Source of the DNA: Bryobacterales bacterium
GTDB taxonomy: Bacteria; Acidobacteriota; Terriglobia; Bryobacterales; UBA6623
Reading direction: 5' to 3'
DNA: 64,000 nucleotides
NCBI GenBank assembly: GCA_965204095.1
Contig: OZ241991.1
Coordinates: forward strand, 2,640,290-2,704,289
Shown: piece after piece, positions 10,233-63,557 of the stretch
Numbering within the stretch: the stretch's first letter is position 1
How the letters are laid out: each line of letters begins with the position of its first letter
The notes under the pieces: model-generated
What the model saw: only the letters and a program-made list of their open reading frames with translations
The model's database searches: none
What the model was told of the DNA's origin: nothing
Made by a program: the position numbers and the translations under genes

Positions 10233-10411
10233 CCTGCATGTCTCGCCACGAGGTGAGGTGAAGTGCGTGAGAGGGCCGCGTCACGACGAGGCGCTAGCCG
10301 CTTGGCGCGCGCAGGCGTACTTGAACAGTACATCGAGCACGGCAAGCAAGCGCAACGAAGTCATGGCGGTCGTATCGCGTGCTTCGGCCGTCAGATGGTG
10401 AGAAATGCAGG
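10233..10411 (+). repeat. Hairpin repeat family, copy 1 (full core, 179 bp)
   Basis: Left end cctgcatgtctcgccac, right end ggtgagaaatgcagg, central GC palindrome and GTACTTGAACAGTAC. Starts 5 nt after the 7814..10228 stop. Confidence 0.9.
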
Positions 10412-10451
10412 CTTGTCGCTGGACGCCGACAACATGGCCTTTAAGGTTTTT

Positions 10452-10475
10452 CACGAATCACGATTCACGAAACAC
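10452..10475 (+). repeat. CACGARW heptad tract (3 units) preceded by GGTTTTT
   Basis: cacgaat cacgatt cacgaaa read directly. Confidence 0.8.
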
Positions 10476-10539
10476 CTTGGAACCAGGCCACCTGCCCCCG
10501 GTTGATTCGGAGCCCTTGCTTCACTCACAATAGTGACCT

Positions 10540-10782
10540 ATGGCCGCAACGCAAGTGGATTTCGACAACTTCATCGGGCGTTCCTGGGACCGCCTCGACC
10601 TCGCCGAGCGCGAACTGCTCTACGGTTCCTGCATCGCTCGCGAGATCTACACGCCGCAGACGTTGCCGCTCCAGCGCATCGAGGCGATCGGCGATTCCGT
10701 CGAGGCCTGTGTCGCCAAACTCCAGGAACGGAACCTCGATCCGCTGAACTTCGAGTTCGTTCGGCTCGATCCGCCCTACTAG
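10540..10782 (+). CDS. Small hypothetical protein (80 aa)
   Basis: This frame has strong GC3 codon bias compared with overlapping ORFs. No recognisable motif. Confidence 0.5.
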   Translation: MAATQVDFDNFIGRSWDRLDLAERELLYGSCIAREIYTPQTLPLQRIEAIGDSVEACVAKLQERNLDPLNFEFVRLDPPY

Positions 10783-10855
10783 CAGCAGCCCTGCTGTCCA
10801 GCTCAGGCCCCGCGGCAACCTTGACAGCCGCCGCCGCGGCCTCAATACTGGCAAG

Positions 10856-12721
10856 GTGTCGATCGTTCCACTGTTCCCTCTCCTTCTTTTTCTAGCTCTC
10901 TCCATACCCGCTCCCGCCCAGGATTGGCCTTCTTACGGCAATGATCCCGGCGGAATGCGCTACTCGCCTCTCGAGCAGATCAACAAGGAGAACGTTGGCG
11001 CGTTGGAAGTCGCCTGGGTTCATGACACCGGCGACATGAGTGACGGCACTTCGCTCCCGACACGCTCGGCGTTCGAGACGACCCCGTTGCTCGTCGACGG
11101 CGTGCTCTACGTGGTGACCGTCTTCCACCGGCTGGTGGCGCTCGACCCGGTCACCGGCAAGCAGCTCTGGGAGTTCGATCCGCGGTTTGACCGCAGCCAG
11201 CGCGTGAATCAATATCACAGCCGTGGCGTCGCCTACTGGTCTGACGAGACCCGCAAGCGCATCTTCCTCGCGGACCAGCTCGGCCGGCTCTTCTCGATCG
11301 ACACCGAAACTCACGAATCCGACCCCGGCTTCGGTGACGGCGGCATGGTCGATCTCAAGACGGGCATGTTGGTCGACCGCTACCCGCACCTTCGTTACGG
11401 GGTGACCTCGCCCGTCGCGCCTTGCGGCGACAAGGTGGTCGTCGGCGGCTGGGTGAGCGATGGGGAGCCGCAAGGCCCCAGCGGTGACGTTCGCGCCTTC
11501 GATGCCCGGACGGGAGCGTTGGCGTGGCGCTTCCACGTCGTCCCGCGTCCCGGAGAGTACGGCCACGGCACATGGAGAGACGGCTCGTGGAAAGACCGAG
11601 GCGGAACCAACGCCTGGTCCACCATGAGCGTCGACCCTGACCTCGAATGGGTCTTCGTTCCGCTGACTTCGCCCAGCACGGACTACTTCGGAGGCGACCG
11701 CAAGGGCATGAACTTGTTCGGCAATGCCGTCGTAGCCATCGACTGCAACACCGGAAAACGCCAGTGGCACTTTCAAACCATCCATCACGACCTCTGGGAT
11801 TGGGATCTTCCCGTCTACCCCAATCTTGTCGACGTTGTTCGTGACGGCAAGAAAATCCCGGCGGTCGCTCAAATCACCAAGACCGGCTTCATCTTCGTCC
11901 TCGACCGTATCACGGGGCGGCCGCTGTTCCCCGTCGAAGAGAGGCCTGTCGAATCGAGCAATGTGCCCGGCGAGGAATCCTGGCCGACGCAGCCGTTTCC
12001 GGTGAAGCCGCCGTCGTTCGCACGGCAGTCCATGACTCGCCAAGAGATCACCGATGTAACCCCCGAGTCCCGCGCCGAGTGCATGGAGATGATCGACAAC
12101 GCCTACTTCGACGGTCCCATGTTTCGCGCCATTCGCGAACAGCTCACCATCCAGTTCCCCGGTACGAACGGAGGCGCCAACTGGGGCGGCGGCTCCTTTG
12201 ATCCGACCGAAGGCGTGCTCTTCGTGAATTCGATGGACGTCGGCGCGCCCAAGCGCATGGTGAAACGCCCGGAGGGATCCAAGGTCCCCTACCGCAGCCG
12301 CGGAACGAGGTTTGGCCGCTTCTGGGACTCGAATATGTACCCCTGCCAGAAACCGCCCTGGGGACACCTCACGGCCGTCGATCTCAACACCGGCGAGTTT
12401 CGCTGGCGCGTGGTTCTCGGTGAAATCGACGATCTCACCAAACGCGGCATTCCCAAGACCGGAACGTCGAACCTGGGCGGCCCGATTGTCACAAAGGGTG
12501 GACTCGTCTTCATCGCCGCGACCAACGACAGACGATTCCGCGCCTTCGACAAAGACACCGGCGAACAGCTTTGGGAAACCCGTCTCCCCGCCAGCGGCCA
12601 CGCCACTCCCATGACCTATCAGGGGCGAGACGGCAAGCAGTACGTTGTCATCGCAGCCGGCGGCGGCAACAAGTACAACAGCGACTTCAGCGGTAAAGTC
12701 GTTGCCTTCGCGCTGCCGTGA
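10856..12721 (+). CDS. PQQ-dependent dehydrogenase (glucose/quinate-like beta-propeller), secreted
   Basis: Signal peptide, then DWPSYGNDPGGMRYSPLEQIN, HHDLWDWD and repeated W-motif blades. Confidence 0.9.
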   Translation: MSIVPLFPLLLFLALSIPAPAQDWPSYGNDPGGMRYSPLEQINKENVGALEVAWVHDTGDMSDGTSLPTRSAFETTPLLVDGVLYVVTVFHRLVALDPVTGKQLWEFDPRFDRSQRVNQYHSRGVAYWSDETRKRIFLADQLGRLFSIDTETHESDPGFGDGGMVDLKTGMLVDRYPHLRYGVTSPVAPCGDKVVVGGWVSDGEPQGPSGDVRAFDARTGALAWRFHVVPRPGEYGHGTWRDGSWKDRGGTNAWSTMSVDPDLEWVFVPLTSPSTDYFGGDRKGMNLFGNAVVAIDCNTGKRQWHFQTIHHDLWDWDLPVYPNLVDVVRDGKKIPAVAQITKTGFIFVLDRITGRPLFPVEERPVESSNVPGEESWPTQPFPVKPPSFARQSMTRQEITDVTPESRAECMEMIDNAYFDGPMFRAIREQLTIQFPGTNGGANWGGGSFDPTEGVLFVNSMDVGAPKRMVKRPEGSKVPYRSRGTRFGRFWDSNMYPCQKPPWGHLTAVDLNTGEFRWRVVLGEIDDLTKRGIPKTGTSNLGGPIVTKGGLVFIAATNDRRFRAFDKDTGEQLWETRLPASGHATPMTYQGRDGKQYVVIAAGGGNKYNSDFSGKVVAFALP

Positions 12722-12732
12722 GTTACGGCCAG

Positions 12733-12783
12733 CCTGAATGTCTCACCACGCGGCGAGACGAAGTGCGTGAGAGGGCCGTCAGA
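12733..12783 (+). repeat. Hairpin repeat family, copy 2 (left arm only)
   Basis: cctgaatgtctcaccacgcggcgagacgaagtgcgtgagagggccgtcag, lying between convergent stop codons (12721 and 12807). Confidence 0.85.
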
Positions 12784-12806
12784 AGTGAGTTATGTAGGCT
12801 GGACCG

Positions 12807-14399
12807 TCAGTCCATCAACGCGAAGGTCATGATCGCTTCGCCGGCCGCCACCGCCACGTATTGTTTCCCGCGGAACCGATAGGTGATCGGCGCAGCCGCT
12901 ACCGACCCGCCAGACTGAAACTTCCAGAGCACCTTGCCCGTCTCGGCGTCGAACGCCGTCACGTATCCCTGCGGGTCTCCTCCGAACACCAGCCCTCCCG
13001 CCGTCGCCAGCAAGCCGCTGCTCGGATTGGACACCATCTCGTAGCGCCACTTCGTTTCTCCGGTCACCGGGTCCAGGGCGACGATGGACCCTGTTGCGGG
13101 TTCGTCGGGGACGCCGCCCACCGTGCTGGCCTGGTACCACTGCCCTTTGATGTATCCCTGTGTCGTCCTGTAGTAGATATGGCATCCATCGATCGAATCG
13201 AAGTAATACAGCCCAGTCTGCGGGCTGTACGCCGTTGGGTGCCAGTTATGCCCTCCGCCCAATCCCGGGCAGGCGACGTTGCCTTCCTCTGTCGGGTCCT
13301 TCCCAGGAATCAGAATCGGCCGGCCTTTCGCGTCGATCCCGTCCGCCCAGGTGACCATCGTATAGGCGCGCGCCAGCAGGAACTCACCCGTCGTTCGATC
13401 GAGTACGTAGAAGTGACCGTTGCGATTCGCCTGTATCAGCGCCTTGCGCTTCTTGCCCTCGACGTCCAGATCCACCAGGACCGGGTCGGCCACCGCATCC
13501 CAATCGTGCACGTCATGGGGTGTGAACTGGAAATGCCACTTCAGCGTACCCGTATCGGCGTCGAGCGCCACGACGCTGCACGTGTAGAGGTTATCGCCGG
13601 GCCGCACATCACCATTCATGTCAGGCCCCGGATTGCCGGTGCCCCAATAGATCAGGTTCAGTTCCGGATCGTACGTCCCCGTAATCCAGGTCGACCCGCC
13701 CCCGCGCTTCCACGAGTCGCCGCCCCAGGTCTCGTGTCCCGGCTCACCCGGACCCGGAACCGTCCAGAACCGCCAAACGCGGTCTCCGGTCTTGGCGTCG
13801 TAGGCATCCAGAAAATCTCGCGTGCCGAACTCCGCCCCCGCGATCCCCACCAGGACCATGTTCTTGACGATCAGCGGCGCGGCGGTCGCCGAATAGCCCT
13901 CCTTGTAGTCCGCAACGACCTTCTCCCACAGAACATCGCCGGTCTTGGCGTCGAGCGCCACGAGAGTCGCTCCGAAGTTCACCTTGTAGAGCGTGTCACC
14001 CAGAATCGCGAACCCGCGGTTGGGCCGCGCGCAGCAGCCCTGGGCTTCTTTCGCCGGCTTCTTCGAGTAATGCCACAGCTCTCGCCCGGTCAGCAGATCC
14101 AGCGCCCAGGCGTGGTTGTTGTGGCCGGTCACGTACATGACGCCGTCGCTGACCAGCGGGGTCGTCTGGAGCCGGCCGGAAACGCCGGTCTGGAAAACCC
14201 ACGAAGGCGCCAGGCGCTTCACGGTGCGGGTGCTGATCTCGTCCAGCTCGCTGTAGCGCCATCCGGAGTAGTTCCGGCCGTACGTCAGCCACGACTCCGC
14301 ATCGCCTTGCGCATCGAGCAACATCTGGTTCGTGACGTCCCCGGCGAAAGCTCCGGCCGCGGAGAGCATGCCCAGAAGCAAGATGACGCTGCCTCTCAT
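12807..14399 (-). CDS. PQQ-dependent alcohol dehydrogenase family protein (quinoprotein), secreted
   Basis: ORF 12807..14453. Start chosen at 14399, with GGAGGA upstream and MRGSVILLLGMLSAAGAFA signal. Shows WLTYGRNYSGWRYS, vicinal GCCARPNRG and FTPHDVHDWD. Confidence 0.9.
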   Translation of the reverse strand: MRGSVILLLGMLSAAGAFAGDVTNQMLLDAQGDAESWLTYGRNYSGWRYSELDEISTRTVKRLAPSWVFQTGVSGRLQTTPLVSDGVMYVTGHNNHAWALDLLTGRELWHYSKKPAKEAQGCCARPNRGFAILGDTLYKVNFGATLVALDAKTGDVLWEKVVADYKEGYSATAAPLIVKNMVLVGIAGAEFGTRDFLDAYDAKTGDRVWRFWTVPGPGEPGHETWGGDSWKRGGGSTWITGTYDPELNLIYWGTGNPGPDMNGDVRPGDNLYTCSVVALDADTGTLKWHFQFTPHDVHDWDAVADPVLVDLDVEGKKRKALIQANRNGHFYVLDRTTGEFLLARAYTMVTWADGIDAKGRPILIPGKDPTEEGNVACPGLGGGHNWHPTAYSPQTGLYYFDSIDGCHIYYRTTQGYIKGQWYQASTVGGVPDEPATGSIVALDPVTGETKWRYEMVSNPSSGLLATAGGLVFGGDPQGYVTAFDAETGKVLWKFQSGGSVAAAPITYRFRGKQYVAVAAGEAIMTFALMD

Positions 14400-14512
14400 C
14401 TTCGGTTTCCTCCTGCCATTTCTCTCGACCCGGGAGAAAATCTCCCAGCGCAATCGTGATCGAGGCGGGTTCCTGGATTCATCTGGTTGTTGACCAGCGT
14501 CTTCCGGACACC

Positions 14513-15319
14513 CTACTGGTTTCGTCGCAAGCTCACCAAGTACGCCAGGACGTCGTCAATCTCCGAACCGCTCAACATTCCCTCGTACGACGGCATCAGC
14601 GACTCGGGCTCCCGCTCGACAGACCGCACTTCATCCCGCAGATACGAGTGGATCTCTTCCCGCGAGTCCATCAGTTGAACGGAAAAGTTGTCGATGTTCA
14701 TCTGGCGTCCGCGGACGGCTTCGCCATCTCGCTCAACCACTGAGATTGTGTCGAACCCCTTGGCGATATTCTTGCTCGGCTCGACGAGCGATTCCCGCAG
14801 CCGGGCGAAACTGAGGGTCCGACCGATGCGGCTCAGGTTCGGCCCAAGCCGTCCGCCTGTGCCTGCAATGCGATGGCATCCGGCGCACCCCCCCTTTCCC
14901 TGATAGATCGATTCACCCCGTGAAGCATCGCCTGTCAACACCGGCGTCTCTTTGCGAGCCACCGAACGTAAGTAGGCCACGACACGCCAAATCGTGTTGT
15001 CATTCATGCGTTCGCCGAAGCCCTGCATCTCGGTGGCGCTCACACCGTCCTTTATGACTTCGAACAGATCCCCATCGCTGTCACCGACCTCGTAGACGCC
15101 CAACGTAAGGTCCGGCCCGGAGCCCCCTGCAGCCCCGATCCCATGACAGGGAGCACAGTAGATGCGGAAGGTGGCGCGGCCCGTGTCGATGTCGTCCGCA
15201 CTGTTGTGGAAGGGGTTCGTTCTGCTGGGCTGCGCGGAACAGACGGATGCCGCCATCAAAACCAGGAAAACAGAACGTACCACGGTTGCAAGGATACGTC
15301 CGCAACCGACCGCTGTCAA
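14513..15319 (-). CDS. Di-haem cytochrome c with C-terminal Pirellula/Verrucomicrobium-type haem-binding-like domain
   Basis: Signal peptide, CAPCHG and CAGCHR, and C-terminal ...SLMPSYEGMLSGSEIDDVLAYL. Lies upstream of the quinoprotein on the same strand. Confidence 0.85.
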   Translation of the reverse strand: MTAVGCGRILATVVRSVFLVLMAASVCSAQPSRTNPFHNSADDIDTGRATFRIYCAPCHGIGAAGGSGPDLTLGVYEVGDSDGDLFEVIKDGVSATEMQGFGERMNDNTIWRVVAYLRSVARKETPVLTGDASRGESIYQGKGGCAGCHRIAGTGGRLGPNLSRIGRTLSFARLRESLVEPSKNIAKGFDTISVVERDGEAVRGRQMNIDNFSVQLMDSREEIHSYLRDEVRSVEREPESLMPSYEGMLSGSEIDDVLAYLVSLRRNQ

Positions 15320-15597
15320 TGAGGCCCAGCATGCAGGAGCGGCAAATGCATGGCTGCCTTCTCATGCTCTTCAGCCATCAGGCAAATGGATATCCAGGCG
15401 GGGCCGCCGGCGCCCCGTACTCGCCGCCGGATGTCGTCCGAATCCGCTCATGACTTTGCGCTTCCCCAACATCGGGACCTCTCAAGGCTTCCCAATCTGA
15501 CATTCCGGGGACACCCCGGGGAGCATCCGAGCAGACTCATGGAGGACGAGAACGCTAAACTCGAAGTTTCGGCTTCTGCCGAATTGCCACCCCGCCA

Positions 15598-21248: not shown

Positions 21249-21520
21249 CCTGCATTTCTCACCACGCGGCGAGGCGAAGTGGGTGAGAGGGCCGTCAGGA
21301 CTAGGCTCAAGCCGGGCGGAGGAAAAAGGCACGAGCCGCTTGGCGCGCGCAGGCGTTCTTGAACAGTACGTCGAGCACGGCAAGCAAGCGCAACGCAAGC
21401 CGCCCTTGAGCGACGGCCGTGCCGCCTGCCCAGGTTTTGGGGTCACGAAACACGAGACACGAAACACGAATCACGGCCTTTTTTCGCGTGCTTCGACCGT
21501 CGGGTGGTGAGACATGCAGG
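21249..21520 (+). repeat. Hairpin repeat family, copy 3 (long variant, 272 bp, with heptad tract 21444-21476)
   Basis: Same termini and core, plus extra GGCTCAAG..CTTGAGC and GGGCGG..CCGCCC complementary inserts and cacgaaa cacgaga cacgaaa cacgaat cacgg. Confidence 0.9.
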
Positions 21521-26351: not shown

Positions 26352-26599
26352 CCTGCTTTTCTCAACACGTGGCGAGACAAAGTGCGTGAGAGGGCCGTCA
26401 GGACGAGGCACGAGCCGCTTGGCGCGCGCAGGCGTACTTGAACAGTACGTCGAGCACGGCAAGCAAGCGCAACGCAAGCCGCCCTTGAGCGACGGCCGTG
26501 CCGCCTGCCCAGGTTTTGGGGTCACGAAACAGGAGACACGAAACACGAATCACGGCCTTTTTTCGCGTGCTTCGGCCGTCGGGTGGTGAGAAATGCAGG
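26352..26599 (+). repeat. Hairpin repeat family, copy 4 (long variant, 248 bp, heptads 26523-26555)
   Basis: Ends cctgcttttctcaacac / ggtggtgagaaatgcagg. Its right end abuts the TAA stop (26600-26602) of the minus-strand gene. Confidence 0.9.
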
Positions 26600-32426: not shown

Positions 32427-32562
32427 ACTCGCCGCAGAAGAGGCGAATGCCGCCTGGCGCACGCAGTTCTGCTTGACCGCACCTCGAAGACGGCAAGCCG
32501 GCGCCAGGAAGTCCTGGCGGTCGTGTCGCGTGCTTGCCCCGTCAGGCGGGAAGAAAGACAGA
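32427..32562 (+). repeat. Hairpin repeat family, decayed copy
   Basis: ...gacggcaagccggcgccaggaagtcctggcggtcgtgtcgcgtgcttgccccgtcaggcgggaagaaagaca aligns to the right two-thirds of the consensus. The left arm is eroded. Confidence 0.6.
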
Positions 32563-35233: not shown

Positions 35234-35420
35234 CCTGCATTTCTCACCACGTGGCGAGGCGAAGTGCGTGAGAGCGGCGTCAGGACGAGGCGCGAGCCGG
35301 GCGGAGGAAAAAGGCGCGCGCAGGTGTACTTGAACAGCACGTTGAGCACGGTAAGCAAGCGCAACGAAGTCCTGGCGGTCGTATCGCGTGCTTCGACCGT
35401 CGGGTGGTGAGACATGCAGG
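35234..35420 (+). repeat. Hairpin repeat family, copy 5 (187 bp; GGAGGAAAAAGG variant lacking half of the GC palindrome)
   Basis: Ends cctgcatttctcaccac / ggtggtgagacatgcagg. This is the uninterrupted reference for the intron insertion site. Confidence 0.9.
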
Positions 35421-40497: not shown

Positions 40498-40658
40498 ACG
40501 TTTCCCGCTTGAATGATCCGCACACGGGCGGAGGAAGAAGGCGCGCGCAGGCGCACTTGAACCGTACGTCGAGCACGGCATGCAAGCGTTGCGAAGGAAA
40601 AGCGAAGTCATGGCGGTCGTATCGCGTGCTTCGGCCGTCGGGTGGTGAGAAATGCAGG
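40498..40658 (+). repeat. Hairpin repeat family, copy 6 (left arm replaced by the GTTTCCCGCTTGAATGATCCGCAC module)
   Basis: From gggcggaggaagaaggcgcgcgcagg onward it is colinear with the consensus to ggtggtgagaaatgcagg. Confidence 0.85.
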
Positions 40659-42887: not shown

Positions 42888-43064
42888 CCTGTATTTCTCA
42901 CCACGTGGCGAGGCGAAGTGCGTGAGAGGGCCGTCAGGACGAGGCGCGCGCCGCTTGGTGCGCGCAGGCGTACTTGAACAGTACGTTGAGCACGGCAAGC
43001 AAGCGCAACGAAGTCCTGGCGGTCGTATCGCGTGCTTCGACCGTCAGGTGGTGAGAAATGCAGG
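42888..43064 (+). repeat. Hairpin repeat family, copy 7 (177-bp core; used for the pairing analysis)
   Basis: Ends cctgtatttctcaccac / ggtggtgagaaatgcagg, flanked by TAG and CTA. Confidence 0.92.
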
Positions 43065-43130: not shown

Positions 43131-43164
43131 CCTGCATGTCTCGCCACCTGGAGAGACATGCAGG
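43131..43164. repeat. 34-bp mini-hairpin made only of the family termini
   Basis: cctgcatgtctcgccacctggagagacatgcagg has a 12-bp perfect stem identical to the family ends (G/C allele). Confidence 0.85.
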
Positions 43165-47471: not shown

Positions 47472-47477
47472 TCTTAG

Positions 47478-47653
47478 CCTGTATTTCTCACCACGTGGCG
47501 AGATGAAGTGCGTGAGAGGGCCGTCAGGACGAGGCGCGCGCCGCTTGGCGCGCGCAGGCGTACTTGACGGTACGTTGAGCACGGCAAGCCAGCGCAACGA
47601 AGTCCTGGCGGTCGTATCGCGTGCTTCAGCCGTCGGGTGGTGAGAAATGCAGG
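47478..47653 (+). repeat. Hairpin repeat family, copy 8 (176 bp)
   Basis: Fills the gap between the convergent trpE and murB genes. Its right end abuts the murB TAA stop (47654-47656). Confidence 0.92.
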
Positions 47654-48700: not shown

Positions 48701-48734
48701 GCCTGCATGTCTCGCCACGTAGTGAGACATGCAG
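48701..48734. repeat. 34-bp mini-hairpin made only of the family termini
   Basis: cctgcatgtctcgccacgtagtgagacatgcagg, lying between the divergent murB and DUF2461 gene starts. Confidence 0.85.
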
Positions 48735-48760
48735 GCTGACCCTTTCGACGAGGAGACGCC

Positions 48761-49471
48761 ATGCCGCCCCGCTTCCCCGGTTTTCCACCCGAAACACTCC
48801 CATTCCTTCGCGACCTGAAAGCCAACAATAAGCGCGAGTGGTTCCAGCCTCGAAAGCCCATCTATGAGGAGAAGGTCAAAGCGCCGATGGTCGAGTTGGT
48901 GATGGCGCTCGGAGAAGAGCTCCGTGACTTCGGAACCGAACTCGTCACGGCCCCGGACAAAGCCGTCTATCGCATCTACCGCGACGTGCGTTTCAGCAAA
49001 GACAAAAGCCCCTACAAGACCCACGTGGCCGCCGTCTTCAGCGCCCGAGGACTCGAAAAGCATGCCGGCGCCGGGCTGTACTTCCACGTTTCGCCCGATG
49101 AGTTGCTCGTGGGCGGTGGTATCTACAGGCCCGGAAGCCGGGAACTGCTGGCCATTCGTCAGCGCATCGCCGTCGGCCACGAAGCGCTCCGAGCGATCTG
49201 CAAGGAAAGGATGTTCCGGCATTTCTTCGGCCGGATCAGCGGCGAACGTCTCAAGCGCACTCCCAAGGGCTTCGCGCCGGATCACCCGGCTGCCGATCTG
49301 CTGGTCTACAAGCAGTTCCTCGCGGTCGGCCATCTCGACCCGGCCATTGCCGAAACCCCGAAGCTTTTCCAGGAACTGGTCGAGCGCTTCCGGACCATCG
49401 AGCCGCTCATTGTTTTTCTGAACTCGGCGCTCGCCGGCGAAAAGAACAAAATAAAACTAACTTCACGATAG
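48761..49471 (+). CDS. DUF2461 (TIGR02453-like) family protein
   Basis: FPGFPPETLPFLRDLKANNKREWFQPRKPIYEE... matches my memory of this family. Function unknown. Confidence 0.7.
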   Translation: MPPRFPGFPPETLPFLRDLKANNKREWFQPRKPIYEEKVKAPMVELVMALGEELRDFGTELVTAPDKAVYRIYRDVRFSKDKSPYKTHVAAVFSARGLEKHAGAGLYFHVSPDELLVGGGIYRPGSRELLAIRQRIAVGHEALRAICKERMFRHFFGRISGERLKRTPKGFAPDHPAADLLVYKQFLAVGHLDPAIAETPKLFQELVERFRTIEPLIVFLNSALAGEKNKIKLTSR

Positions 49472-50642: not shown

Positions 50643-50715
50643 CCTGCATTTCTCACCACGCGGCGAGGCGAAGTGGGTGAGAGGGCCGTCAGGACTAGGC
50701 GCGAGCCGGGCGGAG
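50643..50715 (+). repeat. Hairpin repeat family, copy 9, left part (split by the intron)
   Basis: cctgcatttctcaccacgcggcgaggcgaagtgggtgagagggccgtcaggactaggcgcgagccgggcggag. Joined to 52593-52720 it recreates the copy-5 variant exactly at the junction. Confidence 0.9.
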
Positions 50716-52592
50716 ATCGGGATAGGGGGGAGCCTCGCGGCTCCACCCCTCCCACACCACCGTGCATACGGGTCCGTACACGGCGGTTCGACGGATTTAA
50801 GCGGCTGCACGGGCTTCAACAGAGACGAGGCCGAGGTGCGCGAAGAAGGCATTGGATAGAGCGATCGCGAGCGCGGGACTGTTGCTGATCCGCCACGGGC
50901 CGTGGGCACTGCCAGCGGTTTGGGCCGCCAGATCCTTGCCGATGCCATGGCGGCGCAACGCCGCAAAGCGGGTGCGCCCGCGCTTCCACTGCCGCCAGAC
51001 GAGGGCGCGAAGCCGCCGTCTGATCCACTGGTCGAGTCGATGCAATACCCAGGGGGTCTCGCAGAAGCCGAAGTAGCCCCGCCACCCGACGAGGTAGCGA
51101 GACAGTTCCGCAACGAGATGGGCGAGACTGACGCTCTTGGTGCACTGCGTCAGTTCCCGGACCCGCGCCTTGAACCGAGCGAGTGTCTGCGGCGCGATGC
51201 GCCGCTTGACCGCTGGTCCGGCTGTAAAGCTGAAGCCCAGCAAGGCCCGCGCCACTGGACGATCCACCGCGCTCTTGTCTGCGTTCACCGTCAGCTTCAG
51301 TCGCCGCGCAAGGAAGCGGGTCACGCTCACCATCACCCGCTCGCCCGCCCGCCGGGACCGCACGTAAATGTTGCAGTCGTCGGCATAGCGGACGAAGCGG
51401 TGACCGCGCTTCTCCAGTTCCTTGTCCAGCACGTCAAGCATCAGGTTCGACAGCAAGGGCGAGAGCGGTCCGCCTTGCGGCGTCCCCTTGGTAGTCGGGC
51501 CGACCAGCCCGCCCTCCAGCACACCCGCGCTCAGGAAGCCGCGGATCAGCTTGAGCAGGCGTTTGTCGGCCACCCGTCTGGCCACCAGTCCCATCAGGAT
51601 GTCGTGGTTGACCCGGTCGAAGAATTTCTCCAGATCGAGATCGACCACGATGCCGAAGCCCGAGCGGATGTGGTTCTGCGCGGACTGGATTGCCTGGTGG
51701 GCCGAGCGTCCGGGCCGAAACCCGTAGCTCGCATCCGAGAAGCTGGGGTCCCACTCCCCCTGCATCACCTGCATCACTGCTTGCTGGATGAAGCGGTCGA
51801 GTACCGTCGGCACTCCGAGCGGTCGAACCCCGCCCGACGCCTTCGGTATCTCCACCCGCCGTACCGGCTGCGGGGTGTAGCTGCCGTCGAGAAGTCGGGA
51901 CCTGATCTCGGTCCAGTGGTCCTTCAGGTGATCGCCCAGCTCATCGACCCTCATGCCGTCGATGCCGGGCGCCCCTTTGTTGCGCCGGACTCGCGCCAGC
52001 GCCTTCTTCAAATTGCCGGGCTCGACGACCGTCTCCATCGACGGTCCCTGCCCAGCCGCCGGGCGTTCGGGTCCGGCACGCGCCAGGCGGGCTTCGGTCC
52101 CTTGGGCTCCGGCGCTCCGGGCTTCACCCTTCGCCTCCGGCTCCAAGGCCAGTTCCAACTGGATATTCTGCCGCTTGGTCCGCATGAGCGTACCGTCCTA
52201 CTAACCCTGTCCGTCGTTCGGGCCTTCGCCGGCGTGCCGACTACTATGCCCTCTGCTGACTTCTGCGCCGCGATCACGGGCCTTGCGGACCCGCTCAGTC
52301 CGGGACTTCCGGACACGGCGCAGACCTCCCGAGATAAGATCGACCGCCTTCACCGCGCACCCGCCGGATCTACCACCCCGGCCCTTGATGGCTATGGACT
52401 TCGCGATCATTCGCTCGCTCGTCCGGCCGGGTAGGCCTCGTATCCGGTTCTTGTCCATCGGGTCGCGGCTTTGCTCCACGCTTCCTTCAGACCCCGCCTC
52501 GCGACGACGCCCTTGCGCTTCGCTAATCCTTCGCCGCCATCGGGCTGGATAAAGGACTTGCACCCCCAAGCTGTCGATCATGCTCGGCATAC
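50716..52592 (-). mobile_element. Group II intron (1877 bp), IIC-like, inserted in repeat copy 9
   Basis: Boundaries come from comparison with uninterrupted copy 5. The minus-strand intron starts GTATGCC and ends ...CCCGAT (AY). It has about 407 nt 5' of the ORF and 81 nt 3' of it, including a domain-V-like hairpin near 50757-50795. Confidence 0.85.
50797..52185 (-). CDS. Group II intron reverse transcriptase/maturase (no endonuclease domain)
   Basis: RT blocks (GAPGIDGM, RRVEIPKASGGVRPLGVPTVLDRFIQQA, YADDCNIYV) and X/maturase region (RYLVGWRGYFGF). The short C-terminus has no HNH motif. Confidence 0.95.
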   Translation of the reverse strand: MRTKRQNIQLELALEPEAKGEARSAGAQGTEARLARAGPERPAAGQGPSMETVVEPGNLKKALARVRRNKGAPGIDGMRVDELGDHLKDHWTEIRSRLLDGSYTPQPVRRVEIPKASGGVRPLGVPTVLDRFIQQAVMQVMQGEWDPSFSDASYGFRPGRSAHQAIQSAQNHIRSGFGIVVDLDLEKFFDRVNHDILMGLVARRVADKRLLKLIRGFLSAGVLEGGLVGPTTKGTPQGGPLSPLLSNLMLDVLDKELEKRGHRFVRYADDCNIYVRSRRAGERVMVSVTRFLARRLKLTVNADKSAVDRPVARALLGFSFTAGPAVKRRIAPQTLARFKARVRELTQCTKSVSLAHLVAELSRYLVGWRGYFGFCETPWVLHRLDQWIRRRLRALVWRQWKRGRTRFAALRRHGIGKDLAAQTAGSAHGPWRISNSPALAIALSNAFFAHLGLVSVEARAAA

Positions 52593-52621
52593 GAAAAAGG
52601 CGCGCGCCGCTTGGCGCGCGC
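52593..52621 (-). terminator. Terminator-like GC hairpin plus U-run (minus strand) immediately 5' of the intron insertion point
   Basis: Minus strand reads GCGCGCGCC-AAGC-GGCGCGCGC-CTTTTTC, then the intron GTATG. Confidence 0.5.
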
Positions 52622-52720
52622 AGGCGTACTTGAACAGTACGTTGAGCACGACAAGCAATCACAACGAAGTCCTGGCGGCCATATGGCGTGCTTCAGCCGT
52701 CGGGTGGTGAGAAATGCAGG
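52593..52720 (+). repeat. Hairpin repeat family, copy 9, right part
   Basis: gaaaaaggcgcgcgccgcttggcgcgcgcaggcgtacttgaacagtac...ggtggtgagaaatgcagg. Its right end abuts the TAA stop (52721-52723). Confidence 0.9.
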
Positions 52721-55932: not shown

Positions 55933-55948
55933 GCAACCCGGCCGCAAG

Positions 55949-56190
55949 CCTGCTTTTCTCGCCACCTGGCCAGGCGAAGTGCGCGAGAGGACCGTCAGGA
56001 CGGGGCGCGAGCCGCTGGGCGCCGGCAACACGGCCTGTGCGGTTTTTCACAAAACACGAAACACGGCCTTTCATGCCTCGGGGTTTCGCATTTCCGGTTT
56101 TTGTCTTTGCATCACGAATCACGAGACACGAGACACGAATCACGGCCTTTGTATCGTGTGCTTCGGCCGCCGGATGGCGGGAAATGCCGG
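55949..56190 (+). repeat. Hairpin repeat family, copy 10 (divergent long variant, 242 bp, heptads 56048-56066 and 56113-56145)
   Basis: Ends cctgcttttctcgccac / atggcgggaaatgccgg, with an A-U to G-C compensatory change. Its right end abuts the TAG stop (56191-56193). Confidence 0.85.
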
Positions 56191-58053: not shown

Positions 58054-58226
58054 GTCTCACGCGTAACCGATGAGCATATCGCGGTTACTCTTGAAAACAG
58101 TTTAGTGGCTGCTTATGTCACCGCAACATTGCTTGGCAGGAAAAGAGGCGCATGCACCTATTTCGGAAGAACGTTCCACGACGTTGCGGAAAGGATCCTT
58201 TCCGATATAACTCAGAGAAGGACGTC

Positions 58227-58268
58227 TTCCGGTAGCGGCCGGATCGGTTCATTGAGCCACAATTGACC
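58227..58268 (+). repeat. 42-bp direct repeat, left copy
   Basis: ttccggtagcggccggatcggttcattgagccacaattgacc against 60915-60956 gives 35/42 identical by my count. Confidence 0.85.
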
Positions 58269-58520
58269 GGGCCCGGATCGGCGGCGGTCCGGATCGACTC
58301 CGGGCCGGAGCTGCGGCATGCGGACAAGGCCGGACGGGTCAGGCCCGGTTCGATCACAGCTCTGGCGGTGGTTGAGACGATCGTCTCCTACACCCGTAAG
58401 GCCGGCCTGGGGAAAATCACCCCGCACGATTTCCGGAGAACATTCGCCAAGCTCGCCCACCAGGGCCGAGCGACTCAGTCTCCGATCAACGGCAAAGGTA
58501 GCCGATGTAGACTGCTATGA
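58263..58520 (+). pseudogene. Tyrosine recombinase (phage-integrase family) C-terminal fragment
   Basis: ...GKITPHDFRRTFAKLAHQGRA matches the HxLRRTFA box. It lacks the N-terminal domains and the terminal LGH...Y region. Confidence 0.7.
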
Positions 58521-58993
58521 CCGCCGCGGGAATCCACCCAAGAAAGACGGACGCCCCACAGTAAGAACCACATGGCCAGCGAGCCCCAACTGGCGAGGAA
58601 GATAATCGCCGCGACCAAACTGCCACGGTCGCTCTCGATCACGTCAACCACCATGTAGCGGAGGTCACCGAGCGATTTCATGAAGGGAGGCGGCGGGATG
58701 TGAGGAGTTGTCCGCTGAACAGTGACACCGCCGCCAAGGACCCTGTCAGAAGGCCCCACAACACGGTATCAATTAGCTGGCGGAAAAACCATAAAATTCA
58801 CTATATACACGCTATTATGATCTGAATAGTCACAAAAAGGTCACGAAAGTGTGGTACTAATACTGTGGTGGTCACCGCCGATATTAACTTTGGAGCTGAT
58901 AGCGTTTACAGAGGGTCACAGTTCTGCAAGCTCCTCACTCGCCGATCTTCACAGTCATCGATAGACAGATAGCTCAACTGAAGGAATCTCCAC

Positions 58994-60754
58994 GTGGCCT
59001 ATCAAGCAGCAGTCACGATCGCGCACACTCTCCGTCAAATTGAAAGTCACGAGATCGTGCTTCCCGCAATTCAGCGTGAGTTCGTCTGGCAGCCAGACCA
59101 GATCTACAACCTGTTCGACAGTCTTATGCAGGGGTACCCCTTCGGCACGTTCCTGTATTGGAAGGTCAAGCAAGAGCACAACGAGCGCTACCAGTTCTAC
59201 GACTTCGTCCTCCACTACCATGAGCGTGATCGGCCCCATTGCCCCAAGATTGGCGAAATGCCGAACCGCGACGTCATTGCCGTCCTGGACGGGCAACAGC
59301 GTCTCACCGCCCTCAACATCGGGATCCGAGGCTCGCTAGCGCGGAAGCTCCCGTACAAGCGCTGGAACAGTAGCGACGCGTTTCCAACCCGGTACCTCCA
59401 CCTCGACCTGCTCTGGTCTCCGACCGACGACGACGATGTCGGGATGCGCTATCGGTTCGAGTTCCTCACCCACGAACAAGCCCGTGAGCGCGACGGCTGC
59501 TGGTTCCCCGTACCGGACATCATGACCTTGGCGAACGGTGGCCCCGCCATGACCCGCTGGCTGAGCGACCGCGACCTGGGCGATCAGTCCATCGAAGCGT
59601 ATGAAGTCCTTTATCGCTTTTTCGAGGTGATTCGAAACCTGCCGCTGGTTTCCTTTTACGAAGAACAGAGCCAGGAGCTGGAGAAGGTCCTTCAGATCTT
59701 CATCCGCACCAACAGCGGCGGAACGGTCCTGTCGTACTCAGACCTGCTTCTGTCTGTCGCCGTGGCGCAGTGGACCTCCGACGCACGCGAGGAAATCCAT
59801 CAACTCGTCGACGACATCAACAAGATCGGCGCGGGCTTCGCCTTCTCCAAGGACTGGGTCCTGAAGGCTGGGCTCATGCTCAGCGACATCGGAAGTGTCG
59901 GCTTCAAGGTAGACAACTTCAATCGCGAGAACATGGGCATCCTCGAAAATCGTTGGCCCACGATCAAGGAGGCGCTGATCCTCACTGTCGAACTGGCCTC
60001 AAGCTTTGGATTCAATGGCGCAACCCTGAGAGCCGACAGCGCCCTGCTGCCGATCGCCTACTACCTGTACTCCAAACAGGTAGATGACCGCTTCCTTACC
60101 GACCAGGCCTCCGTAAGCGACCGGGAGTCAATCCGCCAGTGGTTGATCGCGAGCCTTCTCAAGCCGTCAGGTGTTTGGGGAAGTGGCCTCGACACCCTCC
60201 TCACGGCGCTACGCGAGGTCATCCGACAAGACCACGAGAGCTTTCCTGCGCTCGGAATCCGCGAAACGATGCGTTCCCGCGGGAAATCCTTGGCTTTCGA
60301 CGACGATGATATCGACGACTTGACCGAGATGCGATTCGGCGATAAACGTACCTTCTCGCTGCTGTCGCTGGTCTTTCGTCATCTGGACCTACGCCAGCAC
60401 TTTCACGTCGACCACGTCTTTCCAAGGTCCCGCTTCACCCCGGCCAAGCTACGCAATGCGGGGTTCTCCGACACCGATTCCGACCAACTGAGAGACCTCG
60501 CAGACCGCCTACCCAACCTACAACTGCTCGAAGGACACGAGAACCTGCAGAAGAGAGCCACGTTGCCGGCCGACTGGCTTCAGACATTCAGCACGCCCGA
60601 AGCACGCCTCAACTACACTGCGACCCATCTCTTGGGTGACGTGCCAGAGGACCTCGATGCCTTCGTACCCTTCTGTGAGGCAAGGAGACAGCGGCTCAAG
60701 CTCAGAATATCGAGTTTGCTTCAGGGGGCTGATAGGCCCGCCAGTCCAGAGTAG
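58994..60754 (+). CDS. DUF262 + DUF1524 protein (GmrSD-like type IV restriction / nuclease family)
   Basis: N-terminus LPAIQREFVWQPDQIYNLFDSLMQGYPFGTFLYW and LDGQQRLTAL (DUF262). C-terminus HVDHVFPRS...NLQLLEGHENLQK (DUF1524 His-Me finger). GTG start with AAGGA upstream and an AT-rich leader. Confidence 0.9.
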   Translation: MAYQAAVTIAHTLRQIESHEIVLPAIQREFVWQPDQIYNLFDSLMQGYPFGTFLYWKVKQEHNERYQFYDFVLHYHERDRPHCPKIGEMPNRDVIAVLDGQQRLTALNIGIRGSLARKLPYKRWNSSDAFPTRYLHLDLLWSPTDDDDVGMRYRFEFLTHEQARERDGCWFPVPDIMTLANGGPAMTRWLSDRDLGDQSIEAYEVLYRFFEVIRNLPLVSFYEEQSQELEKVLQIFIRTNSGGTVLSYSDLLLSVAVAQWTSDAREEIHQLVDDINKIGAGFAFSKDWVLKAGLMLSDIGSVGFKVDNFNRENMGILENRWPTIKEALILTVELASSFGFNGATLRADSALLPIAYYLYSKQVDDRFLTDQASVSDRESIRQWLIASLLKPSGVWGSGLDTLLTALREVIRQDHESFPALGIRETMRSRGKSLAFDDDDIDDLTEMRFGDKRTFSLLSLVFRHLDLRQHFHVDHVFPRSRFTPAKLRNAGFSDTDSDQLRDLADRLPNLQLLEGHENLQKRATLPADWLQTFSTPEARLNYTATHLLGDVPEDLDAFVPFCEARRQRLKLRISSLLQGADRPASPE

Positions 60755-60914
60755 ACCGGACGTGAAGCGACAAGGTTGGACAGTGACGATGGGATGCATG
60801 CGGCCACCCAAGACTACCCAACCATGCAGGTTTCGCGATGAGGAGCCCCACGCGGATTAGGGGGGGACGTCAGTTGTAACGCCTCGCCTAGGTCCATAGA
60901 TTTCTGCATACAAT

Positions 60915-60956
60915 TTCCGGTTGCGGCCGGATCGGTCAACAGCGCCACAATTGACC
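60915..60956 (+). repeat. 42-bp direct repeat, right copy
   Basis: ttccggttgcggccggatcggtcaacagcgccacaattgacc. Confidence 0.85.
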
Positions 60957-60991
60957 ACTCTGGTCTCGGAGAGGCGGTGGTAGCCGCCAGG

Positions 60992-61459
60992 TCAGTACGT
61001 GACACGTCCCGCCAGGCGCGTCCAGGCCTCGAAGGCATCGAGCGCCCCTTCGCACGGGACATGCTCTATCGGCAGTGCGCGTTCCTCGAACGGCTTCGCC
61101 AGCTCCTCGTAGATGAACTCGTCGAGGAACTCGATACTGGCCGCGTCGTGCCGGTTGACCGCAAAATAGACCCTGCCGATGCGCGACCAGTAGATCGCGC
61201 CCAGGCACATCGGGCACGGCTCGCAACTGGCGTAGATCTCGCAGCCCGACAGCTCATGTGTCGCCAGCTTGCGGCAGGCGTTCCGGATCGCCACGATCTC
61301 GGCATGGGCCGTGGGGTCCTTCGAGCGCAGCACCTCGTTCCAGCCTTCGCCGATGACCGTGTCGTCGCGGACGACCACGGCCCCGAACGGCCCGCCGTGC
61401 CCCAACTCCATACCTCTGCGGGAGAGTGCCACCGCCCGCTTCATGTGCGCCTCGTTCAT
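60992..61459 (-). CDS. Guanine-deaminase-like CDA-fold nucleoside/nucleotide deaminase
   Basis: Start at 61459 within ORF 60992..61681. Shows HAEIVAIRNA and SCEPCPMCLGAIYWS zinc motifs, plus a GuaD-like C-terminal tail. Confidence 0.85.
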   Translation of the reverse strand: MNEAHMKRAVALSRRGMELGHGGPFGAVVVRDDTVIGEGWNEVLRSKDPTAHAEIVAIRNACRKLATHELSGCEIYASCEPCPMCLGAIYWSRIGRVYFAVNRHDAASIEFLDEFIYEELAKPFEERALPIEHVPCEGALDAFEAWTRLAGRVTY

Positions 61460-61692
61460 CTTTCTATCGTGCCGGCCCGCCGCTCGAACCGGTCCGGCCT
61501 CGCATACGCCGCCTCCACCTTGTTCGGCGCCATTTGTGTCAGCGCCGCCTCGATGACCTCCCGCAGCTGGTCGCTCCGCTCGGCCGCCCAGTCCCGGAAC
61601 GACGAGCGGAAACCGTGCGCAACGGCGGGGTTCCAGTGGTCCTGGAGCATCTTCGGCAGCTCCGACATGGCGATTGGCCACGCAGCATACAC
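61456..61692 (-). pseudogene. P4-type tyrosine integrase C-terminal fragment
   Basis: HGFRSSFRDWAAE...NKVEAAYARPDRFERR is the typical integrase C-terminus. There is no N-terminal part. Its stop overlaps the deaminase ATG (ATGA). Confidence 0.75.
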
Positions 61693-61725
61693 TATTCAGG
61701 CGGCGTGAAGCGCATTTCTGCGTAG

Positions 61726-61902
61726 CCTGCTTTTCTCACCACATGGCGAGGCGAAGTGCGTGAGAGGGCCGTCAGGACGAAGCGCGAGCCGCTTGGCGCG
61801 CGCAGGCGTACTTGAACAGTACGTTGAGCACGGCAAGCAAGCGCAACGAAGTCCTGGCGGTCGTATCGTGTGCTTCGACCGTCGAGTGGTGAGAAATGCA
61901 GG
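61726..61902 (+). repeat. Hairpin repeat family, copy 11 (177 bp)
   Basis: Ends cctgcttttctcaccac / agtggtgagaaatgcagg, flanked by TAG and CTA. Confidence 0.92.
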
Positions 61903-62008
61903 CTAATCCAAGAAATACGCTTCAAGGTAAATTGGCGAAAGTGCAGCGAACCTTCGACAGTCGATGCATTCTTCAGTTCTCATCCCGCTTGCCCCCTTGG
62001 AAGCGCCT

Positions 62009-63283
62009 TCACTCCGCGATCCATGCCGGATCGATGCGCAGCAAGTCCCTCCGGTTGACGTCGATGCTTCTCTCGATGCGATGGTAGCGCAACAGGATCG
62101 AGCCGTCCCCGGTTTCGCAGAGAAACGGGTAGCGCATGTGTGCGTTCCGGAGTTCCTTCGTGGACGGTTTTGCGATCAGCTTCGAAGCGCTCCAGCTTTT
62201 GCCGTCGTCGTCCGATATCGCCGCGTGCAGGTATTGGCGTCCCGAGCGGTGAATCTCGTCGCCGGGGTAGTTCGCCCAGTCGTTCCATGACAACACCAAC
62301 CGCCCGTCCGACAACCGCAGGATGCCGGCCGGAGCGTTGGCCGCCCGGATGTCGGTCGGCGTGGAGGGTTCCCACGAGCTGCCGCCGTCCGGCGAGAACG
62401 TCTGATAGAAACGGCCGTACTGCGAGCGGAAGAGCATCCATACGCGGCCGTCGTCGAGCTCCGCCATCACCGGTTCGATGGCGCCGGGGTGCCCGAGGCC
62501 GGGACCGAGCGGGACCCGGATGTCATCGTCGCCCAATTCCCAGGTCTCCCCGTGGTCGGAGGAGAACAGGGTCAGAATGCGGTACTCGTATTCCCCGCGT
62601 TCGGCGAGATAGTTGTCGGTCGCATAGTTCGATGCGAAGAGGATGCGTCCACTGGACAGCTCGATGATCGACTCGATCACCGGCACATAGTGATGCCCCA
62701 TGTCGATGCGCTTGGGGTCCGTCCAGGTCTCGCCTCCGTCGCGGGACACGTTGTGATACAGCTCGGTAAGCCCGATCGCCGCCGGATCGCCCTTTCGGGG
62801 CAGGCCGTAATAACGCATGGCGAAAAGATGGAGCGTGTTCCGCCGATCGAGCAGCAGGTACGGCCCGACGGACTGCTCGTAACGAAACATCGTGCCGCGG
62901 CCCGCGGGGTAGGAGAACGCCGCTCTCTCCCGCGACCAGGTGCGGCCGTGGTCGTCGGAATATCGGATGTAGAGAGGCTGCTCCGGGCCCGGCCGCGGGA
63001 CCTCTCTGCGATCGCGCCCCAGGGTGTAGACCGTCACCAGCCGGTCGTCCCGCAGTTTCGCGATGTGACCGATGCGACCTTCATAGTCGATCAGGGCGGG
63101 GCCGGCGGCGGCCTCGGCGGCAACGAAACTCAGCAGGGCCAGCAGAATGAGGGTGCTTCCCCTTCTCCCCTGCCGGCGCTGCCGTTCCTCCGTCAACGAG
63201 GCCCACTCACCGCCGACGCCGCGGTATGCTCCCGCTGCCGGGAGTCTGATCTCGAACTTAGGAATCAGTGCGTCATGTCTCAT
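62009..63283 (-). CDS. BNR/Asp-box repeat (sialidase-like beta-propeller) protein
   Basis: Five Asp-boxes: SDDHGRTW, SRDGGETW, SSDHGETW, SPDGGSSW and SDDDGKSW. Start uncertain; the signal-like LILLALLSFVAAEAAAG begins about 45 aa in. Confidence 0.85.
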   Translation of the reverse strand: MRHDALIPKFEIRLPAAGAYRGVGGEWASLTEERQRRQGRRGSTLILLALLSFVAAEAAAGPALIDYEGRIGHIAKLRDDRLVTVYTLGRDRREVPRPGPEQPLYIRYSDDHGRTWSRERAAFSYPAGRGTMFRYEQSVGPYLLLDRRNTLHLFAMRYYGLPRKGDPAAIGLTELYHNVSRDGGETWTDPKRIDMGHHYVPVIESIIELSSGRILFASNYATDNYLAERGEYEYRILTLFSSDHGETWELGDDDIRVPLGPGLGHPGAIEPVMAELDDGRVWMLFRSQYGRFYQTFSPDGGSSWEPSTPTDIRAANAPAGILRLSDGRLVLSWNDWANYPGDEIHRSGRQYLHAAISDDDGKSWSASKLIAKPSTKELRNAHMRYPFLCETGDGSILLRYHRIERSIDVNRRDLLRIDPAWIAE

Positions 63284-63292
63284 CTTTTCTTA

Positions 63293-63557
63293 CCTGCATG
63301 TCTCACTACGTAGCGAGGTGATTTGCCTGCATGCTGCGGGCAGTCGTGAGAAGACCGCCAGGACGAGACGCGAGCCGCCCGCGCCGGCAACACAGCCCTG
63401 AAGGGGTTTTTAGCGAATCACGAGTCACGAATCACGCCCTTTCACGCCTCCGGATTTCGCATTTCTGGTTGTTTTGTTTTTGCATCACGAGTCGAGTCAC
63501 GAAACACGAATCACGGCCTTTCCGCGTGCTCCAGCCGTCGGGTTGTGAGAAAGGCGG
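63293..63557 (+). repeat. Hairpin repeat family, copy 12 (divergent long variant with heptads 63412-63437 and 63486-63516)
   Basis: Left end cctgcatgtctcactac, right end gggttgtgagaaaggcgg, with internal GGCAACACAGCC and heptad modules as in copy 10. Confidence 0.8.

Follow-up and report, generated by a model that had tools for sequence, protein, structure and literature searches.

The window analysed here, a 64,000-nt stretch of the Bryobacterales contig OZ241991.1, carries a hairpin-forming repeat of approximately 177 bp in many of its intergenic spaces, and every copy points in the same direction. This raises two questions: what kind of element is the repeat, and how could its copies have acquired a common orientation? 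We find that the repeat is very probably a non-autonomous DDE-type transposon, a foldback miniature inverted-repeat transposable element (MITE), of uncultured Bryobacterales. That it represents a new MITE family, within a kind of element that is already known, is well supported. The whole of the data is best explained, and on balance probably so, by a DDE-type MITE whose orientation was set by some property of the chromosome strand, followed by inversions.

Identification and distribution of the repeat family

Searches with nhmmer, using either a single copy (10233-10411) or a five-copy profile as the query, recovered every copy listed in an original prediction made from the letters of the window, and placed all 13 of these approximately 177-bp repeats on the + strand (Table 1). 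With the single-copy query, E-values in the window ranged from 3e-52 to about 1e-3, the weakest belonging to fragments. A core 21-mer has eight matches in the window against 0.00 expected and a terminal 18-mer has 23 against 0.02, counts so far above expectation that chance is excluded as the source of the repeat. Window copies scored 114-135 bits on the forward strand and 6-16 bits, about one tenth, on the reverse strand, so their orientation is unambiguous despite the hairpin shape. Alignment of the copies gave a 177-bp consensus together with longer variants that hold extra modules in the centre or the right half. The element is non-coding and makes up about 3.5% of the window.

A scan for GCGCAGGYGYWCTTGAACMGYAC in one genome per species returned at least 82 matching stretches (loci L001-L082). 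Together with the window these amount to approximately 684 kb of sampled sequence, in which the complete 5.97-Mb chromosome OZ242366.1 is represented by 49 eight-kb loci. Metagenome-assembled genomes (MAGs) of Bryobacterales (Acidobacteriota) hold nearly all of the matches listed, which include OZ242366.1 and the bins RHO3_bin_12 and APA_bin_29; both bins appear, from their names alone, to be sponge-derived. Parts of OZ242366.1 (L066, at 1.264 Mb) and of RHO3_bin_12 (L045) match the window at about 95% identity, which makes the window a close relative of both, without being identical to either. A profile search of the window and the 82 loci identified 220 elements, about one copy per 3-5 kb, with main size classes of 177 bp (75 copies) and 201 bp (17 copies).

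The family proved to be uncatalogued, as had been proposed, in the libraries searched, namely Rfam (at gathering and permissive thresholds), the plasmids of PLSDB and the phages of INPHARED. At the Rfam gathering score, the window and three loci matched only at a group II intron nested in one copy, and one copy of the element gave nothing at E<=1. A plasmid or phage origin was rejected on the basis of blastn comparisons with PLSDB and INPHARED, which returned no match, and a literature search found no description of the repeat family.

Terminal repeats, target-site duplications and an empty site

The opposite ends of the element are formed by terminal inverted repeats (TIRs) of 17-18 bp, CCTGCATTTCTCACCAC(G) and its complement. 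Matched 4-bp repeats flank several copies in the window (TTAG/TTAG twice, CTAG/CTAG twice and TTAT/TTAT). Among 144 end-to-end copies from the window and the loci, 64 have a perfect 4-bp target-site duplication (TSD) and a further 46 have one with a single mismatch, and TSD lengths of 2, 3, 5 and 6 bp gave no fit in these copies. The TSD consensus is YTAG/YTAR (CTAG 32, TTAG 16, TTAA 4 and CTAA 3), and GTAG/GTAG pairs also occur. The first TSD base is the same on the left and right in 104 copies, being C-C or T-T in 102 of them, and is C/T discordant in 22. No internal column was found to be tied to TSD type (65 columns, best p=0.0135). Flanks that vary among copies, match on both sides and show no internal covariation are true duplications of varied targets and not a carried cleavage motif; a guide-sequence model for the flanking tetranucleotide was rejected for the same lack of covariation with internal positions.

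The combination of TIRs with a TSD of fixed length indicates a DDE-type non-autonomous transposon. At window positions 49458-49461 an empty site (CTAA) is orthologous to a site of OZ242366.1 that is occupied by a 201-bp copy (L066 4629-4829), a difference for which insertion and precise loss are both possible. At 48702-48735 the window retains a 34-bp remnant consisting of the two terminal repeats, and in the OZ242366.1 ortholog (L066 2261-3903) the MITE is complete and carries an IS110-family element in its apex; the two sites differ by a clean loss (or gain) of approximately 1.6 kb between the ends. This remnant and a second one at 43131-43164 were absent from the earlier list of copies. Strict polarity had been taken in the original prediction to speak against a classical MITE, an argument that is overturned by the TIRs, the variable 4-bp TSDs and the empty versus filled site, all of which are DDE signatures.

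Several copies abut stop codons exactly (21248/21249, 35233/35234, 26599/26600, 47653/47654, 52720/52721 and 56190/56191), because at least one strand of the target reads TAG or TAA and the surviving insertions lie at gene ends. The TSD is asymmetric relative to element orientation: TTAG was counted 16 times and CTAA three times, and G at the fourth position is kept more strictly than C at the first. This asymmetry indicates that the two element ends are not functionally equivalent.

Structure of the hairpin

The whole element forms one long imperfect hairpin, and its two strands fold unequally. The predicted RNA fold of the copy at 42888..43064 has an energy of -116.9 kcal/mol on the + strand (z=-12.6) versus -83.9 kcal/mol on the - strand, and the DNA fold of the full element has -60.6 versus -40.9 kcal/mol. 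The consensus contains 60 Watson-Crick and nine G.U pairs, with unpaired positions that are rich in purines (16 G and 16 A versus 6 C and 1 T). Variants at paired positions create G.U pairs about twice as often as A.C mismatches (189 versus 95 copies), and singleton changes at these positions, nine of G.U type versus 17 of A.C type, have no pair-keeping bias. We read the G.U excess as a property of propagating master sequences and not as purifying selection on each resident copy, of which the unbiased singletons give no sign.

Orientation of the copies along the chromosome

The polarity shared by 13 of 13 copies in the window extends well beyond it. In the window and the 82 loci, 131 of 137 adjacent pairs are co-oriented, a local coherence of about 96%, and three of the six opposed pairs involve short single-arm matches of ambiguous orientation. 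On OZ242366.1, 48 of the 49 loci are homogeneous in orientation. Co-oriented domains reach from tens of kb to more than 1 Mb, and orientation flips about 16 times along OZ242366.1 (33 '-' loci and 16 '+' loci), in blocks that range from a single sampled locus to approximately 1.2 Mb. Oppositely oriented full copies lying 2 kb apart exist at L065. Common direction over such distances would not be anticipated for an ordinary cut-and-paste transposon.

Two simple causes of the polarity were rejected. Local duplication or hopping would make neighbours alike, and copies in the same locus (identity 0.904) are no more similar to one another than copies in distant loci (0.917). Transcription direction has no influence either, since genes on the two strands relative to the element number 183 versus 184 (171 versus 174 after masking); the copies are intergenic between genes on both strands, and in both respects the data agree with what had been claimed from the window.

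Orientation tracks instead the composition of the chromosome strand. With the gene-strand effect removed, the element strand is T-rich at third codon positions in 58 of 75 loci (mean A/T skew at third positions, AT3, -0.064; p=1.5e-9). By our own count from the per-locus table, the sign of AT3 fits element orientation in 14 of the 17 orientation blocks of OZ242366.1. Among genes that are long and called with confidence, those co-oriented with the element have a coding-strand AT3 of -0.22 to -0.25 and those anti-oriented one of -0.01 to -0.07 (p=5e-4 to 1e-3). As one of its options the original prediction had named strand-specific or replication-coupled insertion; this strand-composition asymmetry is as expected from a process linked to the chromosome strand or to replication, and coupling to replication itself stays conjectural.

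GC skew was rejected as a correlate, as neither the raw 8-kb skew nor the gene-corrected skew at third positions (GC3) has an overall association with orientation. A sign change of the relation between GC3 and orientation from one chromosome half to the other was lost in a permutation test (p=0.11). No KOPS-like (FtsK-orienting polar sequence) G-rich polar octamer was found in coding DNA, where k-mer asymmetries are only modest (best CGCCTTGG, 48 versus 9). As a separate observation, gene-corrected AT3 skew changes sign blockwise along OZ242366.1 together with MITE orientation, and GC3 does not follow. Over the first 3 Mb of this chromosome the residuals of GC3 and of AT3 show a negative correlation (r=-0.50, p=0.02) that is absent from the remainder (r=+0.11), a half-chromosome pattern that likewise fails the permutation test noted above.

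Possible origins of the polarity

The direction of each copy may have been determined as it inserted, by some strand-asymmetric property of the chromosome, with the replication fork as the most probable one. The transposition complex would then have to tell the two ends apart; the asymmetry of the TSD and the strand-asymmetric hairpin indicate that the element is indeed not symmetric. The orientation blocks of OZ242366.1 would have arisen afterwards, as inversions moved MITEs and AT skew jointly. IS608, Tn7 with TnsE, IS903 and the insertion sequence (IS) transposases that bind the beta clamp may serve as precedents. We regard such a fork-coupled origin as plausible, if not quite probable. A bolder formulation is put forward tentatively, and we hold it to be rather doubtful: that a TSD-generating DDE MITE inserted with about 96% fidelity to a chromosome-strand asymmetry, and that this MITE and the unrelated heptamer arrays described below mark a polarity that is seen in synonymous A/T skew, in many blocks, and is decoupled from GC skew and gene orientation. 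If it were true, these Bryobacterales chromosomes would carry a dense natural record of past replication direction and inversions, or an undescribed strand-marking process.

Several points weigh against a DDE element oriented by a strand property and rearranged by inversions. A search of the sampled 684 kb for end pairs 0.3-2.1 kb apart and for multi-copy repeats brought up no autonomous element that carries these ends. This check had been proposed together with the original prediction. The longer end-bounded units it returned are MITE copies carrying something else (composites with an IS110-family element, the group II intron and heptamer-module composites), and the only multi-copy long repeat in this sample is the IS110-family element that targets the MITE. 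GC3 skew has no overall association with orientation (mean -0.008, p=0.38), a gene-strand bias relative to orientation is absent at the 171 versus 174 genes given above, and tRNA genes, at three versus three, are uninformative as a replication proxy. The roughly 16 switches on one chromosome greatly exceed the two expected for a replication-polar feature, and together with the missing links to GC3 skew, gene strand and tRNA genes they leave a simple picture of one orientation per replichore unsupported. The window and its OZ242366.1 ortholog (1.264 Mb) are atypical, with a GC3 residual of -0.10 on the element strand and an AT3 of about 0; single-locus blocks at 0.248 and 4.248 Mb are also discordant, which makes three discordant blocks including that of the window. 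AT3 skew is the single measurement connecting orientation with replication. A DDE element with nearly identical ends has, moreover, no obvious way to reach an orientation fidelity of about 96%.

Selection after random insertion is the first alternative to be weighed, and we consider it unlikely. A strongly folding strand misplaced at the fork, for example on the lagging-strand template, would be harmful through hairpin cleavage or fork stalling, and such copies would be lost. The hairpin of one strand is indeed more stable than that of the other, by about 33 kcal/mol for RNA and 20 kcal/mol for DNA, orientation tracks AT3 skew, and the two end-only remnants, one of them at a place where a relative keeps the full element, suggest that hairpin-driven internal deletions happen. 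The 64-kb window, however, keeps 13 coherent copies despite its discordant skews, which argues against continuing strong selection, and a sizeable fitness effect would be needed for each of approximately 1000 or more copies.

A somewhat less likely alternative is recombination between copies, in which inversions between opposed copies flip the intervening segments and neighbours constrain each other, with no need for a replication cue. The roughly 16 blocks of very different size on one chromosome are as expected from such a process, MITEs and AT3 skew flip jointly in the 14 of 17 blocks that we counted, as inverted segments would, and hundreds of approximately 90%-identical copies as well as 99-100% identical IS110 copies are available as substrates. 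Recombination would nevertheless explain the blocks and not the initial co-orientation within each of them; it leaves the AT3 correlation across blocks (p ~1e-9) unexplained, and the opposed full copies at L065 do exist.

An element mobilised as single-stranded DNA (IS200/IS605-, PATE- or REP/RAYT-like) by a Y1 transposase acting on the lagging-strand template, the kind of insertion that the original prediction had in part favoured, seems highly improbable. It would suit the strand-polar pattern, the long hairpin with one much better folding strand and the conserved YTAG at the hairpin foot, which we take to resemble the GTAG of Escherichia coli REPs. Against it stand the 4-bp flanks, which vary among copies yet match on both sides and are therefore true duplications that Y1 elements do not make, the lack of covariation between TSD type and any internal guide position, and the perfect TIRs; no Y1 gene was seen, although no exhaustive search was made.

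That the + strand is read as a structured RNA, either from a gene of its own or as a polar cis-regulatory element (terminator or stabiliser), is just as improbable, for while the nine G.U pairs that let only the + strand fold well, the purine-rich unpaired positions and the z-score of the fold would favour it, the element has no Rfam match even at the permissive E-value, no T-run follows the + strand hairpin, singleton substitutions do not preserve pairs, the disregard for neighbour-gene strand would leave about half of the copies transcribed antisense, and the TSDs and the empty site mark mobile DNA.

Comparison with known repeats and transposons

The DDE-type MITE most resembles the IS5 family, which has the target motif YTAR and a 4-bp duplication (PMC5009759). 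It shares with IS5 elements and their MITE derivatives the 4-bp TSD with YTAR and the short TIRs, and a small, non-coding repeat in so many copies is consistent with a non-autonomous derivative. Unlike in that family, the target is skewed to YTAG, the entire element and not just its ends is a hairpin, and the sampled sequence yielded no IS5-like transposase bounded by these ends. Ends that start with CC are, we believe, more typical of IS1380 than of IS5, and we know of no report of copy co-orientation for IS5-type MITEs.

ERIC/IRU, Correia/NEMIS and RUP elements are likewise intergenic, hairpin-forming repeats of 100-200 bp that are present in hundreds of copies and are sometimes hit by insertion elements. 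To our knowledge they occur in both orientations without chromosome-scale polarity. They are not known to share sequence similarity with the Bryobacterales MITE, whose density, at about 3.5% of the window, is higher. The density and the domain-wise polarity of the present family are unusual, and we came across no published account of a comparable polarity in miniature elements that make TSDs.

Family-specific orientation biases of IS elements relative to replication have been described (Gomez et al., 2014; PMC3971601). In that survey, transposase peptides of IS5a and IS1380 bind the beta clamp; the IS5a group has no consistent direction of bias, and other IS5 groups as well as IS1380 are biased in few or no chromosomes (PMC3971601). 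As in replication-oriented transposons (IS608/ISDra2, Tn7 with TnsE, IS903 and the surveyed IS), the orientation of the MITE is tied to chromosome-strand asymmetry and not to genes. It differs from them in its local coherence of about 96%, its near-identical ends and a link to replication that runs through AT3 only, and from IS608-type elements, which have neither TSD nor TIRs, in possessing both.

Integron attC arrays offer another parallel, being similar-sized imperfect palindromes that lie between genes in one orientation and serve group II introns as well as IS110/IS1111-family elements as insertion targets. The Bryobacterales sites, in contrast, are TSD-flanked, occur chromosome-wide and separate multi-gene housekeeping blocks on both strands. 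An attC identity was rejected in view of the TSDs, with no single-gene cassettes and no integrase context seen.

If it is strictly oriented, the MITE would offer a small natural model in which to study how a DDE complex reads fork direction or another strand cue, and one marker per 3-5 kb would provide a high-resolution record of inversions in uncultured symbiont genomes. If the polarity reflects only frozen history and inversions, what remains is an ordinary new MITE family.

Elements inserted in the hairpin

An IS110-family element of approximately 1.44 kb, with DEDD_Tnp_IS110 and Transposase_20 domains and 13-bp subterminal inverted repeats, occupies the apical loop (GTACTT | TGAAC) of six MITE copies on OZ242366.1 and is always co-oriented with its host. 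Identity among the six insertions is 98.7% or more. Presumably this element, whose non-coding regions gave no match in Rfam, is guided by RNA to the hairpin apex. REP/BIME elements have been reported as landing pads of IS110-family elements (PMC1525189), and bridge and seek RNAs have been studied in this context (PMC11208160, PMC11187229). The present case is similar in that the element sits at one fixed apical position and in one orientation in six independent copies. It is dissimilar in that the host repeat is a 177-bp MITE with TIRs and TSDs rather than a RAYT-mobilised REP of 20-40 bp. In L024 (6554-7978), a second, different IS110-family transposase gene lies in a MITE near the apex, opposite to the MITE orientation.

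One copy in the window is split by a group II intron in antisense. The intron open reading frame (50797-52185) encodes a reverse transcriptase with Pfam RVT_1 and GIIM (maturase) domains and without an endonuclease domain. The insertion site lies directly after a 9-bp G+C stem that, on the - strand, is terminator-like, GCGCGCGCC-AAGC-GGCGCGCGC followed by CTTTTTC; such a site would match what we take to be the preference of class C introns. No second copy of the intron was found in the 82 loci. Both RNA-guided IS110-family elements and a terminator-seeking group II intron thus find a safe place to insert, in Acidobacteriota, within an abundant hairpin repeat.

Heptamer arrays and the first 1.5 kb of the window

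A second type of repeat consists of tandem (T)CACGARW heptamers in arrays of two to five units, which typically end in CACGG and then a T-run. In the window every one of the 35 heptamer matches is on the + strand. Among arrays of the other loci that lie more than 300 bp away from the nearest MITE, 29 have the orientation of the MITEs and one has the opposite orientation, so that the arrays share the polarity of the MITE.

Window positions 1-1466, which had been described as filled with modules related to the hairpin repeat, are instead a long non-coding mosaic built from heptamer arrays and a unit of about 100 bp, repeat modules other than the hairpin element, of which no copy is present. Three occurrences of the unit (CACCGGCCGTCAGACATTTCTCCTGGAGCGAACCAG...CCATGGTTTTCACGAA...), at about 51-180, 715-806 and 1180-1283, are separated by tandem repeats of 10 and 20 bp. 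A 403-aa open reading frame at 259-1470 was rejected as a gene, being a translation of the repeats.

Features of the window and genomic setting

Table 1. Repeat copies and associated features. Coordinates are positions in the window unless a locus is named; where stated, copy extents are given as positions of the nhmmer model (1-177). A point in the strand column means that no strand is assigned.
Feature	Coordinates	Strand	Evidence and remarks
Heptamer arrays outside MITE variants	118-183, 366-392, 788-807, 1163-1284, 10452-10470	+	Motif matches
Heptamer arrays inside MITE variants	21444-21476, 26523-26555, 56048-56145, 63419-63516	+	Motif matches
Full-length MITE copy, 179 bp	10233..10411	+	nhmmer model positions 1-177; flanks CCAG/CTTG, a decayed duplication
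Left-arm fragment	12733..12783	+	nhmmer model positions 1-51
272-bp variant with heptamer-array module	21249..21520	+	TSD TTAG/TTAG, overlapping the GntP permease stop codon
248-bp variant, heptamer-array module as in 21249..21520	26352..26599	+	TSD TTAT/TTAT
Decayed copy	32437..32560	+	nhmmer model positions 51-175, E=9e-15
187-bp copy	35234..35420	+	TSD CTAG/CTAG, overlapping the 3-hydroxyacyl-CoA dehydrogenase stop codon
Copy without left arm, right part only	40540..40658	+	nhmmer model positions 70-177
Canonical 177-bp copy	42888..43064	+	TSD CTAG/CTAG
34-bp remnant, two terminal repeats only	43131..43164	.	End matches
Canonical copy	47478..47653	+	TSD TTAG/TTAG; right end adjoins the murB stop codon
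34-bp end-only remnant	48702..48735	.	End matches
Empty target site CTAA	49458..49461	.	OZ242366.1 ortholog filled (201-bp copy, L066 4629-4829)
Left part of 201-bp-type copy, split by group II intron	50643..50715	+	nhmmer match 50643-50714
Group II intron nested in MITE, antisense	50716..52592	-	Rfam RF02001, RF01998, RF00029 (D1-D4 and domain V/VI models)
Right part of intron-split copy	52593..52720	+	Flanks CTAA/TTAA; nhmmer match 52597-52720
242-bp variant, centre replaced by heptamer-array modules	55949..56190	+	nhmmer match 55949-56189; alignment
Canonical copy	61726..61902	+	Flanks GTAG/CTAA
Variant, centre replaced by heptamer modules, right end diverged	63293..63557	+	nhmmer match 63293-63380 and beyond
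IS110-family copies in MITE apex, OZ242366.1	L066 2374-3811; also L058, L034, L035, L068/L022, L021		

The intervals between copies in the window are multi-gene housekeeping blocks of 1.6-8.5 kb with genes on both strands. Genes flanking the copies encode housekeeping functions, including an rpoD-like sigma factor, murB, NAD synthase, homoserine dehydrogenase and a trpE-like enzyme, and further genes between copies encode a PQQ dehydrogenase, transporters and others. The setting is an ordinary chromosome and not an island, a plasmid or a cassette array.

Two diverged full-length copies were identified outside bins labelled as Bryobacterales, one in a MAG labelled Pseudomonadales (JBGSQB010000229.1; L081, 656-830) and one in a MAG labelled Acidobacteriaceae (L075, 2117-2293). 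They score 49 and 90 bits, respectively, and could result from mis-binning, from an older relative of the family or from horizontal spread.

Approximately 90%-identical copies at such a density appear to break short-read assemblies. A 7534-bp metagenome contig from ENA (L083) and a further sequence (L084) carry the homoserine dehydrogenase gene of the window, and their ends, judged from length and gene content, seem to lie near the positions of the flanking MITEs, as would be expected if the family fragments such assemblies; L083 appears to span one inter-copy interval.

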